Source of the DNA: Xanthomonas sp.
GTDB lineage: Bacteria > Pseudomonadota > Gammaproteobacteria > Xanthomonadales > SZUA-5
Reading direction: 5' to 3'
Length of the DNA: 51,275 nt
Assembly: GCA_020693165.1 (NCBI GenBank)
Contig: JAIMJQ010000007.1
Span: 1 to 51,275, forward strand
The notes below the pieces were generated by a model, which was not told the origin of the DNA, did no database searches, and was given only the letters and a program-made list of their open reading frames with translations. Shown in pieces: positions 3,481 through 44,574 of this stretch (position 1 is its first letter; every line of letters starts with the position of its first letter). Both the position numbers and the translations under genes were made by a program.

Positions 3481-3566
3481 CGAACAACAACGGACAGTCA
3501 AGAATCGAACAACAACGGACGAACAACGAACAACAACGGACAGTGAAGAATCAGAATTTTCCTACA
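3481..3566 (+). repeat. Tandem array (CGAACAACAACGGAC-type units, 25-nt unit CGAACAACAACGGACAGTSAAGAAT x2) plus the GAATCAGAATTTTCCTACA module
   Basis: Read directly: 3481-3505 and 3528-3551 are near-identical, with partial units in between. The 19-mer at 3548-3566 repeats 761-779. Confidence 0.8.
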
Positions 3567-3622
3567 TGCCATTGGGCTGATCCCTAACTGCGCCAAAGCG
3601 CCGAAGCGCCGATGCTTCTCCC

Positions 3623-4651
3623 ATGGCTTACGCCCGCTCGATCCTCGTTCCGCCCGGCTTGCCCGGCACCTACCATTGCGTGTCGCGCTGTGTGCGCCGC
3701 GCGTGGCTGTGTGGCGAGGATCGCGGCAGCGGCCGTTCCTACGAGCACAGACGGCAATGGGTCGAAGACAGGATCGGCGAACTCACCGGGATCTTCGCGG
3801 TCGCCGTCTGGGGGTACGCGGTGATGAGCAACCATTTGCATGTGGTGGTGCAGGTGATCCCGCAAGCGGCCGCCGCTTGGTCGACTGAGGACGTGGCCGC
3901 GAGATGGTGTCGCCTGTATCCGCGTCGGGATCAAGACGCCAGCATGCGGGCCGAGGCGCTGGCCGGAAACGAAGGACGGATCAAAGAGCTGCGAGGGCGC
4001 TTGTGCGATTTGTCCTGGTTCATGCGCTGCCTGGCCGAACCGATCGCTCGACGCGCAAACCGCGAGGACGGTTGCAAGGGGCATTTCTGGGAGGCGCGCT
4101 TCAAGTGCCAGGCTCTGCTTGACGAGATGGCAGTGTTGTCGGCGATGACCTACGTCGACCTCAATCCGGTTCGAGCCAGGATCTGCGACAGCCTCGAGGA
4201 GTCTGCGCACACGTCAGCCAGGGTTCGCCTCGACGTGATCGAGAAGGATCGACAGCAGATCGATCAGCCCTTGGCCCCGGTCTTGGGCTTGCGGGGATTC
4301 GGTGTGCTGACGCTCAAGCAGCGCGACTACCTGGAACTCGTCGACTACACGGGTCGCCAGATTCACCCTGGCAAGCGCGGCGCCATTTCCGGCCCGCCGC
4401 CGGCTGCGCTGGCGCGGATCGGTTACACGAAGGATCAGTGGCAACGCCAGGTACTTGCGGTCGGCGCGGGATACTTCCGGGCGATCGGTGCTGCTGACGT
4501 TCTGATCGAGAAAGCGCAGGAAATCGATCAGGCGTGGCTTCGGGGCAACGGCATCGCACGGCAGCTCAAGCTCCGGAGCCGCATGCACGGAACCGCATGG
4601 AATAGAATACTCGACTGTCCGGAGCCCGAAGACCCGATTGTCCGGAGCTGA
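3623..4651 (+). CDS. REP-associated tyrosine transposase (RAYT; IS200/IS605-like Y1 HUH transposase, COG1943-type)
   Basis: 342 aa. HUH motif in AVMSNHLHVVVQV and catalytic-Tyr motif MTYVDLNPVRARI. ATG at 3623. Confidence 0.85.
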   Translation: MAYARSILVPPGLPGTYHCVSRCVRRAWLCGEDRGSGRSYEHRRQWVEDRIGELTGIFAVAVWGYAVMSNHLHVVVQVIPQAAAAWSTEDVAARWCRLYPRRDQDASMRAEALAGNEGRIKELRGRLCDLSWFMRCLAEPIARRANREDGCKGHFWEARFKCQALLDEMAVLSAMTYVDLNPVRARICDSLEESAHTSARVRLDVIEKDRQQIDQPLAPVLGLRGFGVLTLKQRDYLELVDYTGRQIHPGKRGAISGPPPAALARIGYTKDQWQRQVLAVGAGYFRAIGAADVLIEKAQEIDQAWLRGNGIARQLKLRSRMHGTAWNRILDCPEPEDPIVRS

Positions 4652-4796
4652 AGACCAAGAGCCGAAGACCAAGAGCCGAAGACCTACTTCGAAGACCTGC
4701 TTCAAGATGTTCGATGCGCGAATACGCGCAACGACAGGGCGACCGGGACTCCTGCAGGGCACGCTTTTCCGACACCACGCATGGCACTTTTCTGAC
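4627..4796 (+). repeat. Tandem array (GAAGACCAAGAGCC x2 plus GAAGACC partials), conserved TGTTCG core (4707-4752) and GGGCACGCTTTTCCGAC module
   Basis: The array overlaps the RAYT stop codon (4649-4651). The core ATGTTCGATGCGCGAATACGCGCAACGACAGGGCGACCGGGACTCC aligns with 9022-9072 and with the reverse complement of 14369-14426. Confidence 0.8.
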
Positions 4797-8056: not shown

Positions 8057-8797
8057 ATGTGGGCGCGCATCATAACCAGAACCGCGGTCGCGTCGAGAAA
8101 TCCCATCCAAGCCAACTCGCCCGCCATCGAGAGTGCGCAGGATCGTCCGCACCGGCGGCTGCTCGAATGCGTCGATCGGCATCGCCGGCACCACTGGCGC
8201 CAGCCGATCGCTGCGCATTCGCATGCGGCTTTCGGGCAGCTGCAGTCATGGCTGTGCGAGCGCGCGGCGTTGCCGCTGGTGCTCGATAGCGGCTGTGGCA
8301 CCGGCGCCAGCACGGCAGCACTCGCGGCGGCGCATCCTGGCTGTGCGGTGGTCGGCGTCGACCAATCGTTGGCGCGGCTGTCGCGGCACGTCGAGATCGC
8401 GGGCGACCTGGCGCTGATCGCCGCGAATGCCGCGCTGCTGCGCGCGCCGTTGCAAGATGTCTGGCGCCTGCTGCTTGCCGATGACCGGCGCCTTGAGCGG
8501 CACTTGCTCTGGTATCCGAATCCGTGGCCGAAGCCCGAGCACCTCGGGCGCCGCTGGCATGCGCACCCGGTGTTTCCTGCGTTGCTTGCCCTCGGCGGCA
8601 AGATCGAGCTGCGCAGCAATTGGCGCGTTTACGTCGACGAGTTCGCACTGGCGCTGCTTGCGCATGGATGGCCGAGCACGATCGCCGCGGTTGGCGCATT
8701 CGACGATCCGGTGACGCCGTTCGAGCGCAAGTACCGGGATTCCGGGCACCCGCTGTGGTGCCTTTCGACTGCGCCACCCGCGAATCGCGGTGCGTGA
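8057..8797 (+). CDS. SAM-dependent methyltransferase, TrmB (tRNA m7G46)-like
   Basis: SAM motif LDSGCGTGAS and LLWYPNPWPKPEH, typical of the TrmB family. The start is uncertain: 8057 is the first in-frame ATG and lies only 15 nt from the divergent metX start. Confidence 0.55.
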   Translation: MWARIITRTAVASRNPIQANSPAIESAQDRPHRRLLECVDRHRRHHWRQPIAAHSHAAFGQLQSWLCERAALPLVLDSGCGTGASTAALAAAHPGCAVVGVDQSLARLSRHVEIAGDLALIAANAALLRAPLQDVWRLLLADDRRLERHLLWYPNPWPKPEHLGRRWHAHPVFPALLALGGKIELRSNWRVYVDEFALALLAHGWPSTIAAVGAFDDPVTPFERKYRDSGHPLWCLSTAPPANRGA

Positions 8798-8800
8798 ATC

Positions 8801-8818
8801 GGGACTCTCACCGAACAT
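8801..8818 (+). repeat. Isolated terminal segment of the TGTTCG core (GGGACTCTCACCGAACAT)
   Basis: Identical to the reverse complement of 14370-14387. Lies 3 nt after the TrmB-like stop codon. Confidence 0.7.
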
Positions 8819-8859
8819 AACGTAAGCAATTGATTTGAGTGGATTAAAAGTTCATCACT

Positions 8860-9008
8860 CCGTTCACTCTGAGCAAAGCGTCCGACGCTTTATCGGTACG
8901 CACAATCGATTGCCCTGAGCCTGTCGAAGGGCGAAGGGTGGCGCGCACCGTCACCCTTCGACGGCGCGTCCCGGTGCAGCTCCGGGACGCTCTGCTCAGG
9001 GCGAACGG
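8860..9008. repeat. MITE-like element bounded by 24-nt imperfect terminal inverted repeats, with a nested heptamer-armed hairpin
   Basis: Left arm CCGTTCACTCTGAGCAAAGCGTCC (8860-8883). The right arm (8985-9008) reads CCGTTCGCCCTGAGCAGAGCGTCC on the other strand. Inner hairpin at 8923-8962: GTCGAAGGG CGAAGGG TG..CACCCTTCGAC. The same TIR family occurs at 44359-44574. Confidence 0.75.
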
Positions 9009-9021
9009 TGGGGAAGTGAGC

Positions 9022-9072
9022 CAGTTCGATGCGCCAATAGGCGCACCGGCCAAGGGCGGCCGGGACTTTCAC
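9022..9072 (+). repeat. Conserved TGTTCG core copy
   Basis: CAGTTCGATGCGCCAATAGGCGCACCGGCCAAGGGCGGCCGGGACTTTCAC aligns with 4707-4752 and with the reverse complement of 14369-14426. Its end overlaps the GNAT stop codon (9069-9071). Confidence 0.75.
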
Positions 9073-10363: not shown

Positions 10364-10503
10364 GGAACCTCCAGGGGGGTGCAGTAGCAGCTCAGTATAG
10401 CGGGATGTGTTGGGCTGCTCTGAATGGTTGGTCCGGGTGGGGGTGTGGGTTGTCGGGCTTCTGGGCTGGGGCGGGCGGCAACCTCGCGAGAACCTGGATC
10501 TTG

Positions 10504-10567
10504 GTGGGTCCAGACTTGTCTGGACCTACCAGAAGGAGCAGCAGCGTCCAGACAAGTCTGGACCCAC
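10504..10567. repeat. REPIN-like doublet: two perfect 22-nt inverted copies of a self-palindromic REP
   Basis: GTGGGTCCAGACTTGTCTGGAC (10504-10525) and GTCCAGACAAGTCTGGACCCAC (10546-10567) are exact reverse complements, separated by 20 nt. A related single copy is at 22626-22648. Confidence 0.85.
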
Positions 10568-10619
10568 AAAAGCCGCTGCGTGGCCGATCTCGTCGACCGG
10601 CAACCCGAAACCAAAGAAC

Positions 10620-13386: not shown

Positions 13387-14280
13387 TCAGGCCTTGAAGG
13401 CGCGGCCGACCTTGCTGCCGTTGTCGCGCTGCAACTGCGCGCTGATCCAGCGGCCGGTCGCAACCAGTGCCGGCAGGTCGATCCCGCTGCGCAGGCCGAG
13501 GCCGTGCAGCAGGTAGACCACATCCTCGCTGGCCACGTTGCCACTGGCGCCGGCGGCATACGGGCATCCGCCGAGGCCGGCGACCGAGGCATCGACGACG
13601 CGCACGCCGAGCTCCACGCAGGCCAGCGTGTTGGCGAGCGCCTGCCCATAGGTGTCGTGGAAGTGCACTGCCAGCGCGCACATCGGGACTTCGGCCGCGA
13701 CTGCCTGCAGCATCTGCCGCGCTCGCCCGGCAGTGCCGACGCCGATGGTGTCGCCGAGGGAAATCTCGTAGCAGCCCAGTTCGTGCAGACGGCGGGCGAC
13801 GCGCACCACATCGGCGATTGCCACCTCGCCCTGGTAAGGGCAGCCGAGGACCGTCGAGACGTAGCCGCGCACGCGCACGCCGTCATTGCGGGCGTGCTCG
13901 AACACCGGTTGGAAGCGCTCCAGGGACTGCTCGATGGTGGCGTTGATGTTGCGCAGGCTGAAGGCCTCGGAGGCCGCCGCGAACATCGCAATCTCGTTCA
14001 CGCCGACGCTGCGCGCACGCTGATAACCCTGCAGATTTGGCACCAGCACCGGATAGGCGACCCCCGCGCGCTTGCGAATGCCGCTGTAGACCTCGGCTGC
14101 ATCGGCCATCTGCGGGACCCACTTCGGGCTGACGAAACTGGTCGCCTCGACGCTGCGATGGCCGGCGTCGACCAGCCGTTCGATCAGTTCGATCTTGGTG
14201 GCGGTGGCGACCGGCGCAGCCTCGTTCTGCAGACCGTCGCGCGGACCCACTTCCACCAGGCGGATGTCGTTGTCGCTCAT
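13387..14280 (-). CDS. hydroxymethylglutaryl-CoA lyase
   Basis: 297 aa from the ATG at 14280 (MSDNDIRLVEVGPRDGLQNE). TIM-barrel HMGL-like motifs, including HFHDTYGQALAN. The track ORF is extended through the repeat region. Confidence 0.85.
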   Translation of the reverse strand: MSDNDIRLVEVGPRDGLQNEAAPVATATKIELIERLVDAGHRSVEATSFVSPKWVPQMADAAEVYSGIRKRAGVAYPVLVPNLQGYQRARSVGVNEIAMFAAASEAFSLRNINATIEQSLERFQPVFEHARNDGVRVRGYVSTVLGCPYQGEVAIADVVRVARRLHELGCYEISLGDTIGVGTAGRARQMLQAVAAEVPMCALAVHFHDTYGQALANTLACVELGVRVVDASVAGLGGCPYAAGASGNVASEDVVYLLHGLGLRSGIDLPALVATGRWISAQLQRDNGSKVGRAFKA

Positions 14281-14368
14281 GATCAACCCTGTGCTGCTGC
14301 CGATCGGGCTGATGCTGGCGGCGTTGAAGGCGGCAATCAAGGGTTGCAGCCAAGGCATCTGGTTTCGG

Positions 14369-14426
14369 CATGTTCGGTGAGAGTCCCGGTCGCCCCTGAC
14401 GGTGCGCCTATTCGCGCATCGAACAG
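14369..14426 (-). repeat. Conserved TGTTCG core, most complete copy (58 nt, inverted termini TGTTCGGTGAG / TGCGCATCGAACA-type)
   Basis: The minus strand reads CTGTTCGATGCGCGAATAGGCGCACCGTCAGGGGCGACCGGGACTCTCACCGAACATG. Confidence 0.8.
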
Positions 14427-14432
14427 TGGAGC

Positions 14433-14512
14433 GCACGAGGGCACGAGGGCACGAGGGCACGCAAAGGAAGATTCGGAGCAAGCTTCAGCTCATTCGTGCC
14501 CTCGTGCCCTCG
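14433..14512. repeat. Hairpin with tandem-octamer arms: (GCACGAGG)x3 ... (CCTCGTGC)x2
   Basis: Units at 14433-14456, complementary units at 14495-14512, about 38-nt spacer. Immediately adjacent to the core at 14369-14426. Confidence 0.8.
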
Positions 14513-14542
14513 AAGTTTGTGCCATACAATTCAATGATCTAT

Positions 14543-14576
14543 GGCATGTTCGGTGAGGGTGTCTGGCGCACATGCC
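14543..14576 (+). repeat. Partial core-like hairpin GGCATGTTCGGTGAGGGTGTCTGGCGCACATGCC
   Basis: Shares ATGTTCGGTGAG with the core start. GGCATGT and ACATGCC form a stem. Confidence 0.55.
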
Positions 14577-14690
14577 AGATTGCCGCCCCGGCGCGCGCTG
14601 GCAATTGTGCATCGGCTCCGGAGGGAGGGTTGACGGGCCTCACGGGCGCATCTATGCTCCCTTCCAATGTACTAACGCGCTATTACACAA

Positions 14691-15014
14691 ATGAAACGCC
14701 GGGCGTTGCAACCAGAAGCTACCGAAGTGACGCCCCTGGATTTTCTGTGCGAGGGTCTGCTGGCTTTACGCAGCGTCGACGAAATGCGTGCTTTTCTGCG
14801 CGATTTGACGACGCCGGCCGAGCTGGAGGCGCTTACCGACCGCTGGCGCGTGGTGCCTTACCTGATGCAGGAAGTCGCCTACCGCGAGATCCACGATCGC
14901 ACCGCGGTCAGTGTGACCACCATCGGCCGGGTGGCGCGCTTCCTGGGTGGTGAACATGGCGGCTACGCGCTGGCCGCCGGCCGGCTGAAACGCAAGGGGC
15001 GCTGGCCGTTGTAG
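14691..15014 (+). CDS. TrpR-related YerC/YecD family DNA-binding protein
   Basis: 107 aa. TPAELEALTDRWRV and YREIHDRTAVSVTTIGRVARFL (HTH) resemble the YerC/YecD family. Sits directly upstream of hisG. Confidence 0.7.
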   Translation: MKRRALQPEATEVTPLDFLCEGLLALRSVDEMRAFLRDLTTPAELEALTDRWRVVPYLMQEVAYREIHDRTAVSVTTIGRVARFLGGEHGGYALAAGRLKRKGRWPL

Positions 15015-15102
15015 AGGACGCCGTCGCCGACTGCCGAGTTGAGCAGGTAACAGGACGGGCGCTGCGCTGGTGGCAGCGGGCTTCGCCCGCAATGCTGCTT
15101 GA
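15011..15102 (+). repeat. REP-like structured segment beginning with GTAG that contains the yerC-like stop codon
   Basis: GTAGAGGACGCC...GCGCTGCGCTGGTGGCAGCGGGCTTCGCCCGCAATGCTGCT has nested short stems (CGCTGC/GCAGCG, GCGGGC/GCCCGC). The TAG at 15012-15014 lies inside GTAG. Confidence 0.55.
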
Positions 15103-15207
15103 CCAGCAACCAGCAACCAGCAACCAACATCCATCAACCAACAACCAACAACCAACAACCAACAACCAACATCCAACAACCGACAACCGACAACCGACAA
15201 CCATCAA
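15103..15207 (+). repeat. CA-rich microsatellite-like array: (CAGCAA/CAACCA/CAACAA)n then (CAACCGA)x3
   Basis: About 105 nt of 6- and 7-nt units ending 10 nt before the hisG ATG (15217). No Shine-Dalgarno sequence in between. Confidence 0.85.
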
Positions 15208-15216
15208 TCGCCCCCA

Positions 15217-16116
15217 ATGACCAAGCCCAGAGACAGACTTCGCATCGCCGTGCAGAAATCCGGTCGACTTTCCGAGTCGTCGCAGGACCTGCTGGCGCGC
15301 TGCGGACTGAAGTTCCGCCAGAGTCGCGACAAGCTGTTCTGCTTCGGCGAGAGTCTGCCGATCGACCTGCTGCTGGTGCGCGACGACGACATTCCCGGGC
15401 TGATTGCGCAGGGCGTGTGTGAGCTCGGCATCGTCGGCCGCAATGTCGCCAGTGAGCAGAGTATTGGCGCTGGCGCCGAAGGAGCGGCAGCCTTCGTCGA
15501 ACTGCGGGAACTCGGGTTCGGCCGTTGCCGGCTGTCGATCGCAGTGCCGCAGGAAGATGCGTATGTCGGGCCCGAGGATCTCGCGGGTCTCCGCATCGCG
15601 ACCAGCTACCCGCACCTGCTGGGCGAGTTCTTGCGCAGCAACGGAGTCGATGCCGAGATCGTCGTCCTCAACGGCTCGGTCGAGATTGCGCCGCGCCTCG
15701 GTACTGCGGATGTGATCTGCGATCTGGTGCAGTCCGGCGGAACCTTGGTCGCCAACCAGCTGCGCGAGGTCGTTTCCATTCTCGACAGCGAAGCGGTTCT
15801 GATCGGAGCGCGCCAGGACTATGCCGACGAGCGCGCGGATCTGCGCGATTTGCTGTTGCGACGTATCGACGGTGTCATCCGCGTGCGCGAATCCAAGCTG
15901 GTGTTGTTCCAGGTCGATGCGGCGCGCCTGGCGGATGTCCTGGCGGTGCTGCCCAAGGGCGATCCAGCTGCAGTCAGCCGACTGCAAACCCCGCTGAGCA
16001 CGCTGTCGGTACAGGCGGTCTGCCACGAGGCCATCACCTGGCAGCACCTTGAAGACCTGAAGCGCGCCGGCGCTGCCCACCTGCTGGTGGTACCGGTGGA
16101 GAAAATGCTGGCATGA
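15217..16116 (+). CDS. hisG: ATP phosphoribosyltransferase (long form)
   Basis: 299 aa. N-terminus LRIAVQKSGRLSE with a C-terminal regulatory domain. First gene of the his cluster. Confidence 0.9.
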   Translation: MTKPRDRLRIAVQKSGRLSESSQDLLARCGLKFRQSRDKLFCFGESLPIDLLLVRDDDIPGLIAQGVCELGIVGRNVASEQSIGAGAEGAAAFVELRELGFGRCRLSIAVPQEDAYVGPEDLAGLRIATSYPHLLGEFLRSNGVDAEIVVLNGSVEIAPRLGTADVICDLVQSGGTLVANQLREVVSILDSEAVLIGARQDYADERADLRDLLLRRIDGVIRVRESKLVLFQVDAARLADVLAVLPKGDPAAVSRLQTPLSTLSVQAVCHEAITWQHLEDLKRAGAAHLLVVPVEKMLA

Positions 16117-17453: not shown

Positions 17454-18505
17454 GCGTGCTCGATCTCGCGCGTCCGGAATTGTTGGCGCTGAAACCCTAC
17501 AGCTCGGCGCGCATGGAGGCCGGGCACGCCGCGGTGATGCTGAATGCCAACGAGTCGCCGTACCCGCCGTTCGCCGGCGATACCCTGGAGTTGAACCGCT
17601 ATCCCGATCCGCAGCCGGCGGCACTGCTTGACCGGCTGGCGCAGACTTATGGCGTCAGTGCAGCGCAGATCTTCGTTGGTCGCGGCAGCGACGAGGCGAT
17701 CGACCTGCTGGTGCGTGCTTTTTGCCGTGCCGGGCGCGATGCGCTGCTGATCTCGCCGCCGACCTTCGGCATGTATGCGGTGGCGGCCGGTGTTCAGGGT
17801 GCCGACGTCATCTCGGTGCCACTCAAACCCGATCGCCACTTCGAGCTGGATGCCGATGCGCTGCTGGCGGCAGCCGACAGCCAACCGGTCAAGCTGGTCT
17901 TCGTGTGCACGCCAAACAACCCGACCGGCGGTAGCGTCCCGGCTGAGCGCGTTCGCGGGCTGGCAACGGCGCTCGTCGGTCGTGCGTTGGTGGTCGTCGA
18001 CGAGGCTTACGCCGAATTTTCTGAAAGCCCGTCGTTGGCCCTGAGCGTTGCTGAATTTCCCAACCTGGTGGTCCTGCGCACCCTGTCGAAGGCTTACGGA
18101 CTTGCCGGTGCGCGCCTTGGCGTATTGATTGCCAGTTCCGAAATCATTGGTCTGATCCGCCGGATCATGGCGCCGTACCCGGTGCCGACGCCGTGCCTGG
18201 CGGCAGCGCTGGCGGCGTTTGCACCCGAAGCCAGCGCGGCGCGCGCCGAGCACCTGGCGGCCACTTGCGCCGAGCGAGTGCGCCTGGCTGCAGCGTTGAG
18301 TGCGCATCCAGGCGTGCGCCATGTGTGGCCGAGCGATGCCAATTTCGTGGCTTTTCGCGTCGACGATGCCCGCGCAACATGGCGCCGCCTGCTAGATGCC
18401 GGCGTGATCGTACGCGATGTCAGTCATTACCTCGGGCTGGCCAACTGCCTGCGCGTCAGCATCGGCACGCCGGCCGAAAATGACGCGTTCCTCGCTGCGT
18501 TGTAG
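17450..18505 (+). CDS. hisC: histidinol-phosphate aminotransferase
   Basis: 351 aa. Motifs NANESPY and RTLSKAYGLAGARLG (PLP lysine). Overlaps the hisD stop. Confidence 0.9.
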   Translation: MSVLDLARPELLALKPYSSARMEAGHAAVMLNANESPYPPFAGDTLELNRYPDPQPAALLDRLAQTYGVSAAQIFVGRGSDEAIDLLVRAFCRAGRDALLISPPTFGMYAVAAGVQGADVISVPLKPDRHFELDADALLAAADSQPVKLVFVCTPNNPTGGSVPAERVRGLATALVGRALVVVDEAYAEFSESPSLALSVAEFPNLVVLRTLSKAYGLAGARLGVLIASSEIIGLIRRIMAPYPVPTPCLAAALAAFAPEASAARAEHLAATCAERVRLAAALSAHPGVRHVWPSDANFVAFRVDDARATWRRLLDAGVIVRDVSHYLGLANCLRVSIGTPAENDAFLAAL

Positions 18506-18569
18506 GAGCGACGTGTACGCCGCGACCATCGCACGACAGGACCCCCGGTCGCGACGTACACGTCGCTCC
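18502..18569 (+). repeat. REP hairpin with 23-nt arms starting at GTAG, overlapping the hisC stop codon
   Basis: GGAGCGACGTGTACGCCGCGACC (18505-18527) pairs with GGTCGCGACGTACACGTCGCTCC (18547-18569), one mismatch and a 19-nt loop. A related single copy is at 34811-34832. Confidence 0.85.
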
Positions 18570-18599
18570 AACACCAACAACTGACACCATAACCACCCC

Positions 18600-19661
18600 A
18601 TGCGCAAGATCCTCTTCATCGACCGCGACGGCACGCTGATCGAAGAACCTGCCGACGAGCAGATCGATTCTTTCGACAAGCTGCGCCTGTTGCCTGACGT
18701 CATCGTGCCGCTCCGGCGCCTTGCCGACGCCGGCTATGAGCTGGTCATGGTGACCAATCAGGATGGACTTGGGACCGCGAGCTTCCCGGAGCTATCGTTC
18801 TGGCCGGCGCACAACCTGCTGCTGCACATCCTCGAGTCGCAGGGGATCGGCTTTGCGGCGATCCGCATCGACCGGCATTTTCCGCACGAGGCCAGTGATA
18901 CGCGCAAGCCGAAGGTCGGGCTGATGCTCGATTACCTTGCCGACCCGGGTTGGGATCGCAGCCGCAGCGCGGTGATCGGCGATCGCGATACCGATCTGGA
19001 GTTCGCGAAGAACCTCGGCGTTGCCGGAATCCGCTGTGGTCCCAAGGGTCTGTCGTGGCCGCAGATCGCGCGGCAACTGCTGGATGCGCCGCGGATCGCG
19101 CAGATCGTGCGCGCTACCAGGGAAACCCGGATCGAAGTTTGCGTCGATCTCGACGCGGAGACTGCGCCGGAAATCAGTACCGGTCTGGGATTCTTCGATC
19201 ACATGCTGGAGCAACTCGGCAAGCACGGCGGTTTCGGCCTGAAGCTGAAATGCGTTGGCGACCTGCATATCGACGAGCACCACACCGTCGAGGACTCGGC
19301 GCTGGCGCTCGGGCAGGCGCTGAAGCAGGCGCTCGGGGACAAGCGCGGCATCGGTCGTTATGGCTTCACGTTGCCGATGGACGAGACGCTGGCGCAGGCG
19401 GCGCTCGATCTGTCCGGGCGGGCCTGGCTGGAGTTCGACGGCAAGTTCCCGCGCGAGCGCGTCGGCGAGTTGCCGACTGAACTGGTGCCGCATTTCTTCC
19501 GTTCCCTGTGTGACACGCTGGGCGCCAACCTGCATCTGACGGTGCGCGGCGACAACGCCCATCACATGGTCGAAGCCTGCTTCAAGGTGGTCGCACGCAC
19601 CTTCAGGCAGGCGTTCAGGCGCGACGGCGATGTGTTGCCGAGCACCAAGGGCGTGCTGTGA
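18600..19661 (+). CDS. hisB: bifunctional histidinol-phosphatase / imidazoleglycerol-phosphate dehydratase
   Basis: 353 aa. HAD motif [12 protein letters not shown], then IGPD motifs [14 protein letters not shown] and [11 protein letters not shown]. Confidence 0.95.
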
Positions 19662-20443
19662 GTACCGTCGTCGTCGATTCCGGCGTTGCCAACGTCGGCT
19701 CGGTGGTTGCGGCGCTGGAGCGGTTGCAGGCGAAAGTCATCATCAGTCGCGATTGGGAGGTGATCCGTCAGGCTGCTCGTGTCTTGCTCCCCGGCGTTGG
19801 CGCCGCGGCGGCGGCCATGCGTGAACTCGATCGGCTGGGGCTTGTCGAGCGGCTGCCGACGCTGACGCAACCGGTGCTCGGCGTGTGCCTGGGGATGCAG
19901 TTGATGTTCGAGGGGTCGGAGGAGGGCGGGGAGCTCGAAGCCGGGACTCGGGACTCGGGACTCGGGACTCGGGACTCGGCTGTTCAGAGTGAGAATGCAT
20001 CCCGGCTCGTGCGTGTGAATCTGCCGGATCATCGCGGCAGACTCCCCACTGGCCACCAACCCGAGTCCCGAGTCCCGAGTCCCGAGTCCCGGCGGTTGGC
20101 CGTCCCCTGCCTCGGTATCCTCCCCGGCCACGTTCGCCGCCTTCCCGAATCCCCCGGCGTACGCATCCCGCACATGGGCTGGAACGCGCTGATCCCGCGT
20201 CGACCGCATGCGCTGGTCGCCGGCCTTGGCGAGCGCGACTACGCCTATTTCGTGCACAGCTTTGGCGCCGCCGAGAGCGAGCTGACGCTGATGGCTTGCG
20301 AGCACGGCAGCACCTTCTCGGCGGTCGTCGCGCGTGGCAATTTCATGGGTGCGCAGTTCCATCCGGAGCGCTCGGCTGCTGTCGGGGCGCGCCTGCTCGA
20401 CAACTTCCTCAATCTCGATCTGGAGGCGCTCGGGCGATGTTGA
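19658..20443 (+). CDS. hisH: imidazole glycerol phosphate synthase, glutaminase subunit, with an in-frame insertion of about 57 aa
   Basis: 261 aa against about 200 aa typical. GVCLGMQL (catalytic Cys) and QFHPERS are present. Residues about 92-148 are encoded by a palindromic repeat element. GTG start overlapping the hisB stop. Confidence 0.85.
19943..20090. repeat. Intragenic palindromic element: (GGGACTC)x5, core, (GAGTCCC)x4
   Basis: Five perfect heptamers at 19943-19977 and four complementary heptamers at 20063-20090. The 85-nt centre starts CTGTTCAGAGTGAGAATGCATCCCGG, related to the TGTTCG core start. Confidence 0.85.
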
Positions 20444-26022: not shown

Positions 26023-26183
26023 GAATCAGGAAAAAGGAAAAGTCAGGAAAAAGGAAAACGGGGAAGCGGTGTGCGCCAGGTTCCGGGGTAGCTCGCATCG
26101 AACGCTGTGAAGGGCAGAACGGCAGAGGATGCTCGGGCAACCGCTGTTGCCTTCCCCCTTTTCCATTTTCCCTTTTTCCGGCT
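26023..26183. repeat. Palindromic element filling the whole guaA-tadA intergenic region: GGAAAA-rich tandem arms around a divergent core
   Basis: The left arm GAATCAGGAAAAAGGAAAAGTCAGGAAAAAGGAAAACGGGGAAGCGG (26023-26069) is imperfectly complementary to CCGCTGTTGCCTTCCCCCTTTTCCATTTTCCCTTTTTCCGGCTTC (26141-26185). The centre contains CGCATCGAAC, as in the core. Confidence 0.7.
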
Positions 26184-27752
26184 TCATTCCCACTCAATCG
26201 TCGCCGGCGGCTTGCCGGAGATGTCGTAGACCACGCGAGACACGCCGCGCACCTCGTTGACGATGCGATTGGCGACATGGCCGAGGAACTCATGGGGCAG
26301 GTGCGCCCAGTGCGCGGTCATGAAGTCGATGGTCTCGACGGCACGCAGCGCGATCACCGGTTCGTAGGCGCGGGCATCGCCGACGACGCCGACCGAGCGC
26401 ACCGGCAGGTACACGGCGAAAGCCTGGCTGACCTGGTCGTAGAGCGCGTGCTTGCGCAGTTCCTCGATGAAGATGTGGTCGGCGCGCTGCAGCACGTCGA
26501 CCGCCGCGGGCGTGACTTCGCCGAGCACGCGCACCCCGAGGCCGGGGCCGGGGAAGGGATGGCGGTAGACCATTTCGCGCGGCAGGCCGAGGGCGACGCC
26601 GAGGCGCCGGACTTCGTCCTTGAACAGTTCGCGCAGCGGTTCCACCAACTTCATCTGCATGCGCGCGGGCAAGCCGCCGACGTTGTGGTGCGACTTGATC
26701 ACATGCGCCTTGCCGGTTCTCGACCCGGCCGACTCGATCACATCGGGATAGATGGTGCCTTGCGCCAGCCAGCGCGCATTGCCATGGCGCTTGGCTTCTT
26801 CCTCGAAAACCTCGATGAACAGCCGCCCGATCACCTTGCGCTTGGCCTCGGGATCGTCGACCCCAACAAGCGCACCGAGAAAGCGGTCGCGGGCATCGAC
26901 GCGGATCACGTTCAGGTGCATGTGTTCGGCAAACAACGCCATCACCTGGTCGCCTTCCTGGTAGCGCAGCAGGCCGGTGTCGACAAAGATGCACAGCAGT
27001 TGCTGGTCGATCGCGCGATGCAGCAGCGCCGCCACTACCGAGGAGTCGACGCCACCGGACAAGCCGAGCAGCACGTTGTCGCTGCCAACCTGTTCGCGCA
27101 CGCGGGCGATGCCGTCGTCGATGATCCGCTCGGCGGTCCACAGGGTGGCGCAACCGCAAACATCGACGATGAATCGGCGCAGGATGGCCTCGCCATGGCG
27201 GGTGTGGGTGACTTCGGGGTGGAACTGCAGCCCGTACCAGTGGCGCACCTCGTCGGCCATGGCGACGATCGGCACCGTCTGTGTCGATGCCACGCCCTTG
27301 AAGCCCGGTGGGACGCTGACGACGCGGTCGCCGTGACTCATCCACACGTCCAGTGCCGGCTCTTCGTTGTCGCCGGGCAGACCGTCCAGCAATGCGCAGG
27401 AATGGGTCGGCAGCACTGCGGCATGGCCGAACTCGCGCTCGTCGCCGGGGACCACTTCACCGCCGAGCTGCGCTGCCATCGTCTGCATGCCGTAGCAGAT
27501 GCCGAGGATCGGTACGCCAAGGTCGAACACCGCCTGCGGTGCGAGCGGCGAATCGGCCACCGTTACCGATTCCGGGCCGCCCGACAGGATGATGCCGCGC
27601 GGTGCGAAGCCGGCGATCTCGGACGGGTCGTGGTCCCAGGCCCAGATCTCGCAATAAACGCCGATCTCGCGGATGCGGCGCGCGATCAGCTGCGTGTACT
27701 GCGAGCCGAAATCGAGGATCAGGATACGGTTCTGGTGGATGTTGAGGGTCAT
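26184..27752 (-). CDS. guaA: GMP synthase (glutamine-hydrolysing)
   Basis: 522 aa from the ATG at 27752 ([26 protein letters not shown]). PP-loop SGGVDSSV and C-terminal IEWE. Confidence 0.95.
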
Positions 27753-30460: not shown

Positions 30461-30536
<76 letters not shown>

Positions 30537-42412: not shown

Positions 42413-42583
42413 GGGGCGTTTTTGCTCGGGTTCAGGCCTGAGCGAAGGCTATGCGCAGCGCTGATCCGCTTCAAGGATGCGCTGGTGTAAGGTATCGAAC
42501 TGCGGACAAGCGGCATTGGCAAGCGCCGGAGCACGCAAAAGCGGCGCTTTGCGGTCGGTCAAGGAGCCGTGGGACGAGTCAAT

Positions 42584-42668
42584 GAGCCTTGATTCCGTGA
42601 GCCTTGATTCCGTTCATGGTTCGACAGGCTCACCACGAACGGAATCAAGTCTTCGAGCGGAATCGAGG
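42584..42668. repeat. Palindromic element with 15-nt tandem arms (GAGCCTTGATTCCGT x2) around a mini TGTTCG-type core
   Basis: Units at 42584-42613. Centre TCATGGTTCGACAGGCTCACCACGAAC (stem GTTCG/CGAAC). The partly complementary arm GGAATCAAGTCTTCGAGCGGAATCGAGG ends 1 nt before the bpt stop. Confidence 0.7.
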
Positions 42669-42669
42669 T

Positions 42670-43377
42670 TCATTGGCGCTGCAGCGGTATCCAGGTGCCG
42701 CCGACGCGCACTTCGGCGGGCCCGAACTGGTGCTTGTAGTGCATCTTCGGATGCTGGTCGATCCAGAAGCCGAGGTACAGGTGCTGCAACCCGAGCGCGC
42801 GGCATTGCTCGATCTGCTTCAGGATGGCGAGCGTGCCGAGCGATCGGCTCGCTTCGTCCGGGCTGAAATAGGTGTAGATGGCAGAGGCGGCGGCGTCGAC
42901 CTGGTCGGTCACCGCCGCTGCCAGCAACTCGCCGTCGCGGCGCAGTTCGAGGAACCAGGTGCTGGCCCAGCGACTGAGCAGGAAGCGGCTGTAGTCCTCG
43001 GGCGTCGGCTGTTGCATGCCGCCGTCGGCGTGGCGGCTGTCGATGTAGCGCCGATAAAGCTGGTAGTGCTCGTCCGACTCCGCAGCCCGACGCCAGTCGG
43101 TCTGGATGTCATGATTGCGCGCCAGTACGCGTCGCTGCGCCCGATTGGGGGTGAAGCCCGCGACTGGCAGGCGGTAGGCGGTGCAGGCGCTGCAGTTGGC
43201 GCAGTGCGGTCGATAGACGATATCGCCGGCGCGCCGAAAACCATGCGCAAGGGCGCGCCCGAAGAACTCGGCCAGATCCGGCGATTCCGGGTCGAGCACC
43301 TGATTGGTCGATTCGCGGTCGGCGTAGTAGCCGCAGGTGTGCGCCGCCGTGCGGTAGAGACGGATGCTGTCGGCCAT
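42670..43377 (-). CDS. bpt: arginyl/aspartate-glutamate leucyltransferase (Bpt, N-end rule)
   Basis: 235 aa from the ATG at 43377 (MADSIRLYRTAAHTCGYY). Motifs GFRRAGDIVYRPHCANCSAC and HLYLGFWI. Confidence 0.85.
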   Translation of the reverse strand: MADSIRLYRTAAHTCGYYADRESTNQVLDPESPDLAEFFGRALAHGFRRAGDIVYRPHCANCSACTAYRLPVAGFTPNRAQRRVLARNHDIQTDWRRAAESDEHYQLYRRYIDSRHADGGMQQPTPEDYSRFLLSRWASTWFLELRRDGELLAAAVTDQVDAAASAIYTYFSPDEASRSLGTLAILKQIEQCRALGLQHLYLGFWIDQHPKMHYKHQFGPAEVRVGGTWIPLQRQ

Positions 43378-43379
43378 GG

Positions 43380-44252
43380 TCAGGCGGCGGGTTGCGCCAG
43401 CAGCCGCATCAGGCCTTCCTGCGCAGTGGAAGCCACCAGACGGCCCTGGCGGTCGTAGATCATCCCGCGCGACAGGCCGCGCGCGCCCTGCGACGTCGGA
43501 CTGTCGCAGGAATACAGCAGCCACTCATCGACACGGAACCCGCGGTGGAACCACATCGCGTGATCGAGGCTCGCCATCTGCACATTGCCCTGCAGGTAAC
43601 TGATGCCGTGCGGCAGCGTCGCGGTGCCGATCAGGTGGAAGTCCGAGGCATAGGCGAGCAGTGCGCGATGCAGCAGCTGGTCGTCCGGGATGCGGTCGAC
43701 CAGGCGGAACCAGACGTGCTGGAACGGCGGCCGCTTCGGCGGCTTGAGCTCGTCGCGCGGATAGACGTGGCGGAATTCGAATGGCCCGCGGCTCATGACC
43801 CAACGCTGCAGCTTCGGCGGAATTTTTGCCAGCGTCTCCGCAGTCAGCGGTTCGCGCTCGGCGAGGTCCTCCGGCGGCGGCACGTCGGGCATCGACAGCT
43901 GGTGGGTCAGGCCGTCCTCGGGCTCCTGGAACGACGCCGCCATGTTCAGGATCGGCTGGCCATGCTGGATGGCGACCACGCGCCGGGAACTGAAGCTCTT
44001 GCCGTCGCGACTGCGGTCGACCTCATAGACGATCGGCGCCTCGACATCGCCAGCGCGCAGGAAATAGGCGTGCAGCGAATGCACGTCGCGACTCTCGACG
44101 GTACGCTGCGCCGCCGCCAGCGCCTGTCCCAGCACCTGACCACCGAAGACGAAGCGCGTGCCGATATCGCGGCTCTGGCCGCGAAACAGGTTCTCCTCGA
44201 TGCGTTCGAGCTGCAGCAGGTCGATCAGTTCGGTAACGATGGCGTGGGGCAT
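43380..44252 (-). CDS. tesB: acyl-CoA thioesterase II
   Basis: 290 aa from the ATG at 44252. LLQLERIEENLFRGQS, FGGQVLGQAL and a double hot-dog layout. Confidence 0.85.
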   Translation of the reverse strand: MPHAIVTELIDLLQLERIEENLFRGQSRDIGTRFVFGGQVLGQALAAAQRTVESRDVHSLHAYFLRAGDVEAPIVYEVDRSRDGKSFSSRRVVAIQHGQPILNMAASFQEPEDGLTHQLSMPDVPPPEDLAEREPLTAETLAKIPPKLQRWVMSRGPFEFRHVYPRDELKPPKRPPFQHVWFRLVDRIPDDQLLHRALLAYASDFHLIGTATLPHGISYLQGNVQMASLDHAMWFHRGFRVDEWLLYSCDSPTSQGARGLSRGMIYDRQGRLVASTAQEGLMRLLAQPAA

Positions 44253-44358: not shown

Positions 44359-44574
44359 CCGTTCGGTCTGAGCGTTTCCCGCGGGCCTGCGAGCGGGAGA
44401 TGGTCGAAGTACGCCCGCCGCGCAAGCGCGTGGCTCGCGCTTACGATGAGTAGTGATCTCCCAGGCCGCAAACGCGCAGGCTGCGCTACTTGCCGCTGGC
44501 ATCGAGCCCGGCCAGTTCGCGTCCTTCGACTGTTTCCCCCGGAACGGCACGGGGGAAACGCTCAGGACGAACGG
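44359..44574. repeat. MITE-like element (216 nt) bounded by 22-nt terminal inverted repeats of the CCGTTC..CTGAGC family
   Basis: CCGTTCGGTCTGAGCGTTTCCC (44359-44380) against the reverse complement of 44553-44574, CCGTTCGTCCTGAGCGTTTCCC (2 mismatches). Same TIR family as 8860-9008. Confidence 0.7.
44532..44559 (-). terminator. Perfect 10-bp GC-rich hairpin downstream of trmJ
   Basis: GTTTCCCCCG-gaacggca-CGGGGGAAAC. No U tract, and it overlaps the right TIR of the MITE-like element. Confidence 0.35.

Follow-up and report, generated by a model that had tools for sequence, protein, structure and literature searches.

Positions 14429-14512 of the DNA stretch analysed here (contig JAIMJQ010000007.1, of which all 51,275 nt are referred to as the window) form a palindromic hairpin whose arms are tandem arrays of a short unit. 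This hairpin is a module of one family, family d, in a dispersed mosaic repeat of the Rhodanobacteraceae that is built like the bacterial interspersed mosaic elements (BIMEs). The paired arrays found in the window and its relatives fall into one class with the inverted heptamer-array pairs of Xanthomonas, and they are a curious variant of this class rather than a new one. On balance, we consider it probable, if only slightly so, that they are dispersed palindromic repeats with tandem arms, that each arm changes independently by slippage, and that complementarity is renewed by template switching or by replacement of the unit.

The hairpin has a total length of 84 nt. Its left arm, at 14429-14461, is an array of (GAGGGCAC) x4.1, and its right arm, at 14494-14512, consists of (TCGTGCCC) x2.4 and is a perfect complement of the left; no strand is assigned to any of its parts. 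The arms, which were recovered by Tandem Repeats Finder (TRF), as an inverted repeat and by folding, pair over 19 nt with 100% complementarity, lie 39 nt apart and flank a loop of about 33 nt at 14462-14493. When folded as single-stranded DNA, the hairpin had a dG of -29.3 kcal/mol and a z of -6.4, and 0/200 shuffles were as good. The paired arrays that a sequence-only reading of the window had placed at 14433-14512 are confirmed by these measurements. The loop is homologous to that of L024, a non-orthologous copy (z 6.2), and bears no relation to that of the ortholog L038 (L-numbers such as L001, L038 and L122 denote related loci compared with the window).

The hairpin is located between divergent genes, upstream of a conserved trpR-type promoter. 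An intrinsic terminator was rejected, as a consensus scan of 14250-14750 gave no terminator-like site at the hairpin. An Rfam scan of the window returned a single match above threshold, the tRNA gene at 30461-30533, while the region around the hairpin gave only generic sub-threshold microRNA-precursor matches and fits no known RNA family. At 14630-14690, a promoter-like TTGACG-17-TATGCT is followed by the partly palindromic GTACTAACGCGCTATTACA, and both are kept upstream of the Trp-repressor-like gene in all relatives. GTACTAACGCGCTATTACA is probably the operator of this gene.

Further arrays of this kind are present in the window. The pair in hisH is an in-frame palindromic insertion at 19940-20093 (plus strand) that consists of (GGGACTC)5, a spacer of 80-86 nt and (GAGTCCC)4. 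According to TRF, 19942-19979 is (CGGGACT) x5.4 and 20060-20091 is (CCCGAGT) x4.6. These arms are perfect over 34 nt and fold with a z of -8.9, in agreement with the complementary arrays that had been read there. The array hairpin read at 42584-42668 was likewise recovered, at 42583-42672 (no strand assigned; fold z -6.65). It has two units of approximately 15-17 nt per arm and abuts the stop codon of an arginyl/leucyl-transferase gene (42670-43524, minus strand). At two other sites the sequence-only reading held in part. The arms that it placed at 26023-26185, (GGAAAAA/GGAAAAG..) and (..TTTTCC), are complementary and bracket the entire gap from the guaA stop to the start of a deaminase gene (26029-26179, no strand assigned), but 26029-26066 and 26151-26179 match imperfectly, at about 80-83%, with a fold z of -2.6. 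Similarly, the CGAAGGG pair read at 8923-8962 lies in a hairpin, a Y-shaped module of family f at 8913-9001 (plus strand; fold z -5.7; also in L010 and L026), but CGAAGGG is duplicated just once and in one arm only, at 8925-8938. The one-sided arrays at 3481-3552, 4605-4707 and 15102-15207 are present, as had been claimed for the three sites, and are without structure on folding.

The pairing of arrays was assessed in 372 kb comprising the window and non-redundant related loci. Arrays with a period of 6-20 were counted as paired when a reverse-complement partner lay no more than 400 nt away with a mismatch of at most 15%. Such a partner was found for 46/331 arrays, versus 7 in the reversed and 9 in the complemented control, a frequency 5-6 times that of either. 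The complementarity of the arms thus goes far beyond what is expected of low-complexity sequence. Arrays in general are also abundant, as 188 kb of DNA not chosen for cores contained 99 arrays with a score of at least 40, versus 7 in shuffled sequence, and their commonest period was 7 (28/99). This excess suggests a propensity of the lineage to slippage. Across 17 robust pairs, the median arm had 4.1 units and the median difference between left and right was 0.6 units. The view that the arrays lie next to the conserved cores described below did not hold, since approximately 5 of the 17-19 robust pairs in the 188 kb adjoin a core. Most paired arrays are found away from cores, either inside hisH or bracketing gaps between co-directional genes.

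Tandem-armed repeats of this kind, which had been thought undescribed, have a clear precedent. Rehm et al. reported 186 and 183 arrays of GGGAATC/GGGANTN in Xanthomonas campestris and X. axonopodis, respectively, with a mode of four units, and 70 and 75 convergent array pairs able to form stem-loops (Rehm et al., 2015; PMC4692102). Between the two species, the position and the repeat type of the arrays were preserved while their length changed. The arrays were read as quadruplex-forming on the basis of circular dichroism (CD) spectroscopy, are mostly transcribed, and had no association with mobile elements and no function or regulatory role that could be found (PMC4692102). The arrays described here share with them tandem 7-nt units that number near 4, convergent (inverted) pairs, for some pairs the same placement, and a position that is kept while length and sequence vary. 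Specifically, the hisH unit of the window, GGGACTC, fits GGGANTN, and the unit of one hisH type in related species is GGGAATC itself. The paired arrays here accordingly belong to a known but unexplained class. In contrast to the Xanthomonas arrays, there are units without a G3 tract (GGTGAGT, GGTTGTT, GGAAAAA) and units of 8, 9 and 15 nt (such as GAGGGCAC and GGACGCAAA), some pairs are modules of a mosaic and recur in dispersed families with conserved arms, and one is in frame in hisH. The unit at 14429-14512, with 8 nt, is not a GGGANTN heptamer. G3 tracts number 3 in its left arm and 5 in the hisH arm, and by sequence many paired units have none; with only three tracts, the left arm 14429-14461 is not covered by the quadruplex reading. 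The inverted heptamer pairs of Xanthomonas are abundant and have had no explanation beyond their quadruplex potential. What is added here is that units without a G3 tract occur at about 3-4 copies, that units may be 8, 9 or 15 nt long, that some pairs are members of a mosaic repeat, and that units turn over between species.

The element that the sequence-only reading called the core is the linker of a mosaic with BIME architecture, and the hairpin is its exchangeable module. Alignment of flanks gave the order of the mosaic unit as a left module, CTCTCACCGAACATGCCGTAAGTnATTGATT.. (CTCACCGAACATGCC..ATTGATT), a variable hairpin and the core, TTCGATGCGCGAATAAGCGCACCG..GGGGCGACCGGGACTC. In chained units, the core runs straight into the next left module. 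Next to the hairpin at 14429-14512, the core (GTTCGATGCGCGAATAGGCGCACCG..GGGGCGACCGGGACTCTCACCGAACATGCC) occupies 14367-14424 and the left module (CCCTCACCGAACATGCCATAGATCATTGAATT..) 14513-14559, both on the minus strand, and GGCATGTTCGGTGAG is present as a direct repeat at 14367-14381 and 14544-14558. The window holds 3 full cores by the core pattern, the others, both on the plus strand, being at 9024-9072 and at 4709-4752, the latter just downstream of the Y1 element discussed below. Another left module (CGGGACTCTCACCGAACATAACGTAAGCAATTGATTT), at 8797-8840 on the plus strand, begins at the trmB stop codon. The core tip CCGGGACTC has 4 copies in the window, in two cores and both hisH arms, versus 0.67 expected, which bears out the observation that GGGACTC is part of the core terminus. 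A core-pattern scan of one genome per species led to 34 loci. Most genuine core loci come from three Rhodanobacteraceae/Lysobacterales assemblies, and a few are on contigs binned elsewhere. The nearest HisH homologs and the genomes that share the repeats carry the labels Rhodanobacteraceae, Lysobacterales or Xanthomonadales. Contigs L008, L012 and L027, binned as Gemmatimonadales, Rhodocyclaceae and Burkholderiales, hold the same mosaic units and hairpin families and are probably mis-binned Rhodanobacteraceae DNA rather than cases of transfer.

The hairpin modules fall into families, which comprise ordinary GTGG/GTAG pairs of repetitive extragenic palindromes (REPs), a GTAGGTCACG type, families c and d, a G-rich type found in one genome, and the Y-shaped type that includes 8913-9001. 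Family c, (GGACGCAAA)n/(TTTGCGTCC)n, is present in at least 12 loci. Family d, (GAGGGCAC)n/(GTGCCCTC)n, is found in the window, L038, L024, L027 and L014, and at least 4 times in L122; its copies have conserved arms and loops that form subtypes. Both families also occur without a core beside them (L014:58-202, L007:1588-1697 and L025). In L122, 5 consecutive units have hairpins of types d, c, d, c and d and are separated by core plus left module, and chains are also present in L011. It had been claimed that almost every element copy carries tandem repeats. Arms are clearly tandem in only about 9 of about 33 genuine core copies, the others having ordinary REP pairs or other hairpins. Likewise, the unit sequence differs from locus to locus inside the window, as had been noted, but those units reappear in other genomes and at unrelated loci and are thus specific to the family. 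They look locus-specific in the window because each family occurs there once. Two ordinary GTAG-/GTGG-tagged REP pairs are located in the window at 18501-18573 and 10501-10570, with arms of 27 nt at 93% and 25 nt at 96% complementarity.

Like the REPs and BIMEs of enterobacteria, the mosaic repeat combines palindromes with conserved linkers, forms clusters (L122, L011), is intergenic, and has in some linkers a consensus resembling that of integration host factor (IHF). It differs in that its hairpins are 70-150 nt long and have tandem arms and variable loops, its units have one orientation, and it has neither a GTAG tag nor a demonstrated association with a REP-associated tyrosine transposase (RAYT). 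The 84-nt hairpin at 14429-14512 has no GTAG or CGTC tag and is not one of the short (20-40 nt) tagged palindromes that define REPs. In 11/74 relaxed hits (background 0.15%), the left module, read as its reverse complement, has a match to the IHF consensus WATCAANNNNTTR, always at the same offset, which recalls the IHF site of the enterobacterial BIME-1/RIP elements. IHF-like left modules are seen, for example, at L010:6278, in L014, L035 and L122, and at 8815-8835 of the window, and the site is a lead only. [quoted passage not shown] A likeness in form is also found in the Foldback (FB) transposons of Drosophila and in Galileo, which have long inverted arms of tandem short repeats, unequal arms and heterogeneous loops. 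These elements are, however, eukaryotic and of kilobase scale, with a known transposase for some, and no homology is expected.

The his region was obtained from seven relatives by way of their HisH homologs, and it reveals how units turn over between species. In the gap between the HMGL and trpR genes, a family d unit is present in the window (by TRF, 4.1 left and 2.4 right units), L038 (4.1 and 5.4, also by TRF) and L122, where the left arm of the copy beside the trpR-like gene contains 5 units and the right arm 4 (read in core orientation). L037, the sister of L038, has the same flank and element boundary, but a family c unit with a one-sided expansion to 11.4 units. No element is present in this gap in L040, L041 and L124.

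In hisH, the closest relatives carry in-frame insertions of variable length in one loop, after SEEG. Four DNA types were distinguished by their units, GGGACTC in the window, GGGACCC in L037 and L040, GGGAATC in L038, L041 and L124, and GGGGCTG in L123, and the site is empty in L122. Types I, III and IV have complementary units in their two arms (unit mismatch 0), and the distribution of types is incongruent with the HisH tree. In a structural model of HisH, the enzyme core is confident and the insertion loop is predicted to be disordered, with a predicted local distance difference test score (pLDDT) below 50 over residues 95-137. The palindrome is read through in frame, as are the Rickettsia palindromic elements (RPE), intragenic REPs (PMC3733652) and coding palindromes of nematomorph mitochondria (PMC6649704). 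Unlike these, the hisH arms are heptamer arrays, and one site has received four types of insertion in related species. A degenerate mosaic unit or Y1 element was rejected as the source of the insertion, given that the loops have no significant similarity to the linker or the element left end. The insertion types of this loop were seen across the window and the HisH homologs P0002-P0023, and in P0044 and P0046 another palindrome is inserted at a second site.

The gap between the guaA stop and the next start has arms that abut both genes in the window, L040, L041, L122 and L123, with units that are, by species, of the GGAAAAA type, AGTGAGT, GGTGAGT/GGTAAGT or of the GTGAAAC type. REP pairs lie inside the loop in L040 and L041, and in L037 guaA and the next gene overlap. 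REP pairs were also seen inside the loops of tandem-armed brackets in L123. The same bracketing layout is found in the S51 peptidase gap of L037 and L038, with the units TGTTGGT and TGGTTGC, and in the hisF/hisIE gap of L123. Overall, hisH, the guaA gap and the S51 peptidase gap are three orthologous sites at which species have different units but arms that are mostly still complementary, with about 4 units each. These three sites are natural experiments in which slippage and template switching can be set against selection on RNA structure. [quoted passage not shown]

That units turn over while complementarity is kept means that some structure-preserving or copying process is needed. The sequence-only reading had proposed either selection on structure or a templated mechanism, and the non-random hairpins and the turnover at the three sites agree with this choice, whereas the mismatched arms of one hisH type, described below, speak against efficient correction from arm to arm. 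In the account favoured here, the element would have originated as an inverted duplication, which is proposed as the reason that the arms are complementary. Replication slippage would then alter the unit number of each arm independently, and the number would settle near 4 units. Cycles of contraction and re-expansion would spread unit variants within one arm. Complementarity would occasionally be renewed when synthesis switches template from one arm to the other within a strand, the quasi-palindrome mechanism, which is known to homogenise and extend the arms of inverted repeats without selection (PMC7202029, PMC8794818, PMC8604942, PMC13100816). In contrast to those documented cases, switching has not been directly observed here, and mismatched arms persist in one lineage. 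Alternatively, recombination through the conserved flanking modules could replace the whole unit with another member of the family. No dedicated enzyme would be required for the hairpins, and their cellular role is unproven.

Several observations favour this account. Independent dynamics of the arms are suggested by the unequal arm counts in the window, L038, L037 (11.4/2.8), L041 (10.1/4.1) and L122, by the duplication in one arm at 8925-8938, and by the homogeneous but mismatched arms of hisH type II. In L122, three paralogous family d copies have 5, 2 and 2 left units and 4, 4 and 4 right units. Replacement of whole units is suggested by the different units of L037 and L038 at the same boundary and by the incongruence of the hisH types with the HisH tree.

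Other results weigh against the account. No significant correlation links the copy numbers of left and right arms (rho 0.31, p 0.23, n 17), so that coupling of the arms is neither proved nor excluded. Unit-number variation between near-identical strains was not found. There is no array indel between the window and L001/L002 or between L038 and L039 (99.97-99.99% identical), and no event was caught; what looks like an 11-nt difference in L002 is a run of N at an assembly gap. The arrays are thus not hypervariable on that scale. In hisH type II (GGGAATC; L038, L041 and L124), each arm is homogeneous, but the arms differ at one base per unit, a C-C mismatch. As this mismatch is kept in three species, correction from arm to arm cannot be efficient and is weak at best. 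Six family d loops were compared in both orientations, and the pairs of the window with L024 and of L027 with L122 share the same orientation, with no convincing inverted pair; as a test of template switching by spacer inversion, this outcome is ambiguous. The mosaic unit has no clear target-site duplication, and no enzyme that mobilises it was identified. Finally, the fact that arrays keep their position at stop and start codons hints at selection, and a model based on mutation alone has no need of this.

The window also contains a gene for a possible enzymatic source of such arrays. By its motifs and predicted fold, the open reading frame (ORF) at 3623-4651 encodes a RAYT-like Y1 HUH transposase, as had been read from the sequence. 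The HUH motif NHLHVVV and the tyrosine motif YVDLNPVRA are both invariant in alignments of homologs. The ORF falls below curated cut-offs, scoring 16.4 bits versus 23 for Pfam Y1_Tnp and 34.3 bits versus 80 for NCBIfam REP_Tyr_transpos, but some homologs have a precomputed PF01797 match, and one source names homologs RayT. Sequence and profile searches of the protein against the PDB found nothing, and matches were obtained from comparison of structures alone. An AlphaFold2 model built with database homologs had a pLDDT of 76 and a predicted template modelling score (pTM) of 0.79. Its top Foldseek match was 4ER8, a RAYT bound to REP DNA (probability 1.00, E 4e-3, TM-score 0.55 on the target; the E-values are modest), followed by the IS608, ISDra2 and IS200 transposases, which points to the Y1 transposase fold. 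More than 497 relatives of the gene were found in a metagenome scan.

This gene is part of an element at 3538-4620 (plus strand) that is bounded by terminal inverted repeats (TIRs) and is RAYT-like or TIRYT-like, with the left end GGACAGTGAAGAATCAGAATTTTCCTACA and the right end ..CTCGACTGTCC; homology to relatives ends near 4570. The ends are its own inverted repeats, GGGACAGTC(A/G)AGAATC...CTCGACTGTCC(C) (GGACAGT..ACTGTCC), and fit GGGGWSAS, the motif of the TIR-flanked RAYT-like genes known as TIRYT/TIRtron (Di Nocera et al., 2013; PMC3733652). By signature rather than by tree, the ORF fits subclass 2.3 of the class 2 TnpA-Y1 proteins, which have NHYH, WE and YVDLNP, about 325 aa, multiple copies and no REPs (Quentin, 2018; PMC6006769). 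Its motifs are NHLH (one residue off NHYH), WE and YVDLNP, and its homologs have about 320 aa. As in the REPINs of REPIN-RAYT systems (Bertels and Rainey, 2011; PMC3116915), the hairpins consist of two inverted arms and a spacer, and the window codes for a RAYT-like protein. The Y1 gene, however, is bounded by its own inverted repeats and not by hairpins or cores. Beside 80 Y1 relatives there were only 3 weak partial matches to the core, so these genes are not flanked by repeats of this kind as RAYTs are by theirs, and sampled core-bearing and orthologous loci contained no Y1 gene. The core as a repeat mobilised by the Y1 gene is not supported by these data.

Directly outside both ends of the Y1 element are tandem arrays whose unit combines the local flank with a piece of the element tip that varies in length; the tip is GGAC/GGGAC at the left end and GTCC at the right. 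In the window, TRF and the comparison of ends gave a reiterated flank plus left tip, (CGAACAACAAC GGAC[AGTCAAGAATC])n, at 3481-3552 and, after the right tip GTCC, (GGAGCCCGAAGACC)(..)(AAGAGCCGAAGACC)x2(TACTTCGAAGACC) at 4621-4706, both on the plus strand. An example of the left junction of flank and tip is CAACAACGGACAGT. An 8-nt flank plus tip is repeated within 130 nt at 25/53 distinct left ends, versus 36/789 control GGAC sites (4.6%). End arrays were seen in L043, L046, L047, L049, L054, L061, L063, L065, L068, L076, L085, L090, L104 and others, with periods of 8-25 nt and an end share per unit that varies from 3 to approximately 60 nt. No description of such arrays was found in the literature, including PMC3116915, PMC3733652 and PMC6006769. 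They are an observation separate from the hairpins and may reveal how this class of enzyme processes DNA ends. Reiteration driven by the enzyme has indirect support and is the best current idea for them. The proposed nicking by the RAYT is thus supported, indirectly, for the one-sided arrays at Y1 ends alone. At 745-880, the window has another left end that stands alone, is of the GGACACCC type and comes from a related Y1 element. It includes the initial codons of the gene, followed by (CGAAGT)x3 and one more tip-like GGGGACACCCAC, and looks like a deletion derivative. In addition, nested insertions are present in which a Y1 gene copy is broken by the left end of a copy of the same family (L042:2789, L077:321 and L097:2506).

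The chief competitor of slippage with occasional renewal is selection on a nucleic-acid structure, whether a long stem or a G-quadruplex in the G-rich arms, in mRNA or DNA, that keeps the arms complementary while the unit drifts. A candidate role for the stem would be to loop out the spacer and REPs between a stop codon and the next start, coupling translation or stabilising or processing the transcript. The conserved placement at gene boundaries makes this a serious rival. It is seen in the guaA gap, including the overlap of the genes in L037, and again in the S51 peptidase and hisF/hisIE gaps, where the CA-rich arm is directly 5' of the start codon. That complementarity is kept through changes of unit, with both arms at about 4 units, also agrees with it, as do the same placement and prevalent transcription of the Xanthomonas repeats (PMC4692102). 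However, the best-paired case is part of the hisH coding sequence, in which a stem of 34 bp serves no evident purpose and the types turn over and are absent in sister taxa, and 14429-14512 stands between divergent genes upstream of the trpR-type promoter, with no element at the orthologous site in L040, L041 and L124. The type II arms contain a C-C mismatch per unit and not a wobble pair. Quadruplexes cannot be the general explanation, as GGTGAGT, GGTTGTT, TGGTTGC and GGACGCAAA are without a G3 tract yet are present near 3-4 units, and Rehm et al. found no regulatory role (PMC4692102). Selection on structure is accordingly regarded as unlikely, though worth keeping in view.

A weaker rival is that the paired arrays are footprints of Y1 HUH (RAYT-like) enzymes, in which repeated site-specific nicking, followed by repair synthesis or rejoining, duplicates the segment that spans the nick. 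Since a palindrome has the site on each of its strands, both arms would gain complementary arrays. The inverted-repeat ends with their flank-plus-tip arrays, in the window and many relatives, the excess of such arrays over control sites and the variable end share per unit, as expected of end-anchored events, are all consistent with this idea. In addition, two hisH units, GGGACTC and GGGACCC, and the core tip CCGGGACTC contain the tip GGGAC, and GACCGGGAC is common to the core and several left-end junctions. The similarity between the core or left module and the element left end goes no further than GACCGGGAC and is weak (z 2.4), however, and the hisH loops have none. The tip is missing from the units of 14429-14512 and most paired arrays (GAGGGCAC, GGTGAGT, GGTTGTT, GGAAAAA), cores and Y1 genes do not occur together in the loci sampled, the periods of the end arrays are unlike the dominant period of 7 nt, and the heptamer arrays of Rehm et al. 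are unlinked to mobile elements (PMC4692102). We consider such footprints improbable. A broader version, by which the enzyme would nick a fixed junction repeatedly, make the end arrays and seed the complementary arrays of palindromes, and which could explain the abundant 7-9-nt repeats and inverted pairs in the Xanthomonadales, is more doubtful still. Lastly, the arrays could be ordinary microsatellites that lie near each other by chance. The genome is rich in short arrays, and chance clearly accounts for some of the pairs, weak ones of the 6-mer x2 kind in coding DNA. Nevertheless, the frequency of partners relative to controls, arms that are perfect over 19-34 nt, the failure of any shuffle to fold as well, and the recurrence of the same pairs at orthologous sites in several species leave coincidence with next to no credibility.

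The window as a whole is a GC-rich chromosome segment with a his operon, in which hisG (15217-16116) is followed by hisD, hisC, hisB, hisH (19658-20443) and onward. Its positions 4691-25012 are 99.995% identical to contig JAIMKH010000004.1 of GCA_020692745.1. At 44359-44574 there is a long imperfect inverted repeat with arms of 56 nt that are 75% complementary and separated by 104 nt; the sequence on its outer side, CCGTTCGGTCTGAGCG, is similar to that of the outer stem in the Y-shaped module (8913-9001). At L033:1780-1880, directly upstream of a gene start, there is a one-sided (CCCGAGT)x13 array that has the unit of the window hisH arms but no partner. The one-sided array at 15102-15207 (plus strand) is (ACCAACA) x15 and is located directly 5' of the hisG start, where relatives also have a CA-rich array. 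More generally, hisG, hisB, hisIE and the S51 peptidase gene have CA-rich arrays of 6-7-nt units directly 5' of their start codons, where no Shine-Dalgarno sequence is obvious. They are found at 15102-15207 and 18573-18599 in the window and at the same positions in L037, L038, L040, L041, L123 and L124. Several gaps with such an array before the start codon also have a complementary GU-rich array after the upstream stop codon, and in L122 a (TTTTACN)n array takes the place of the CA-rich array before hisG.

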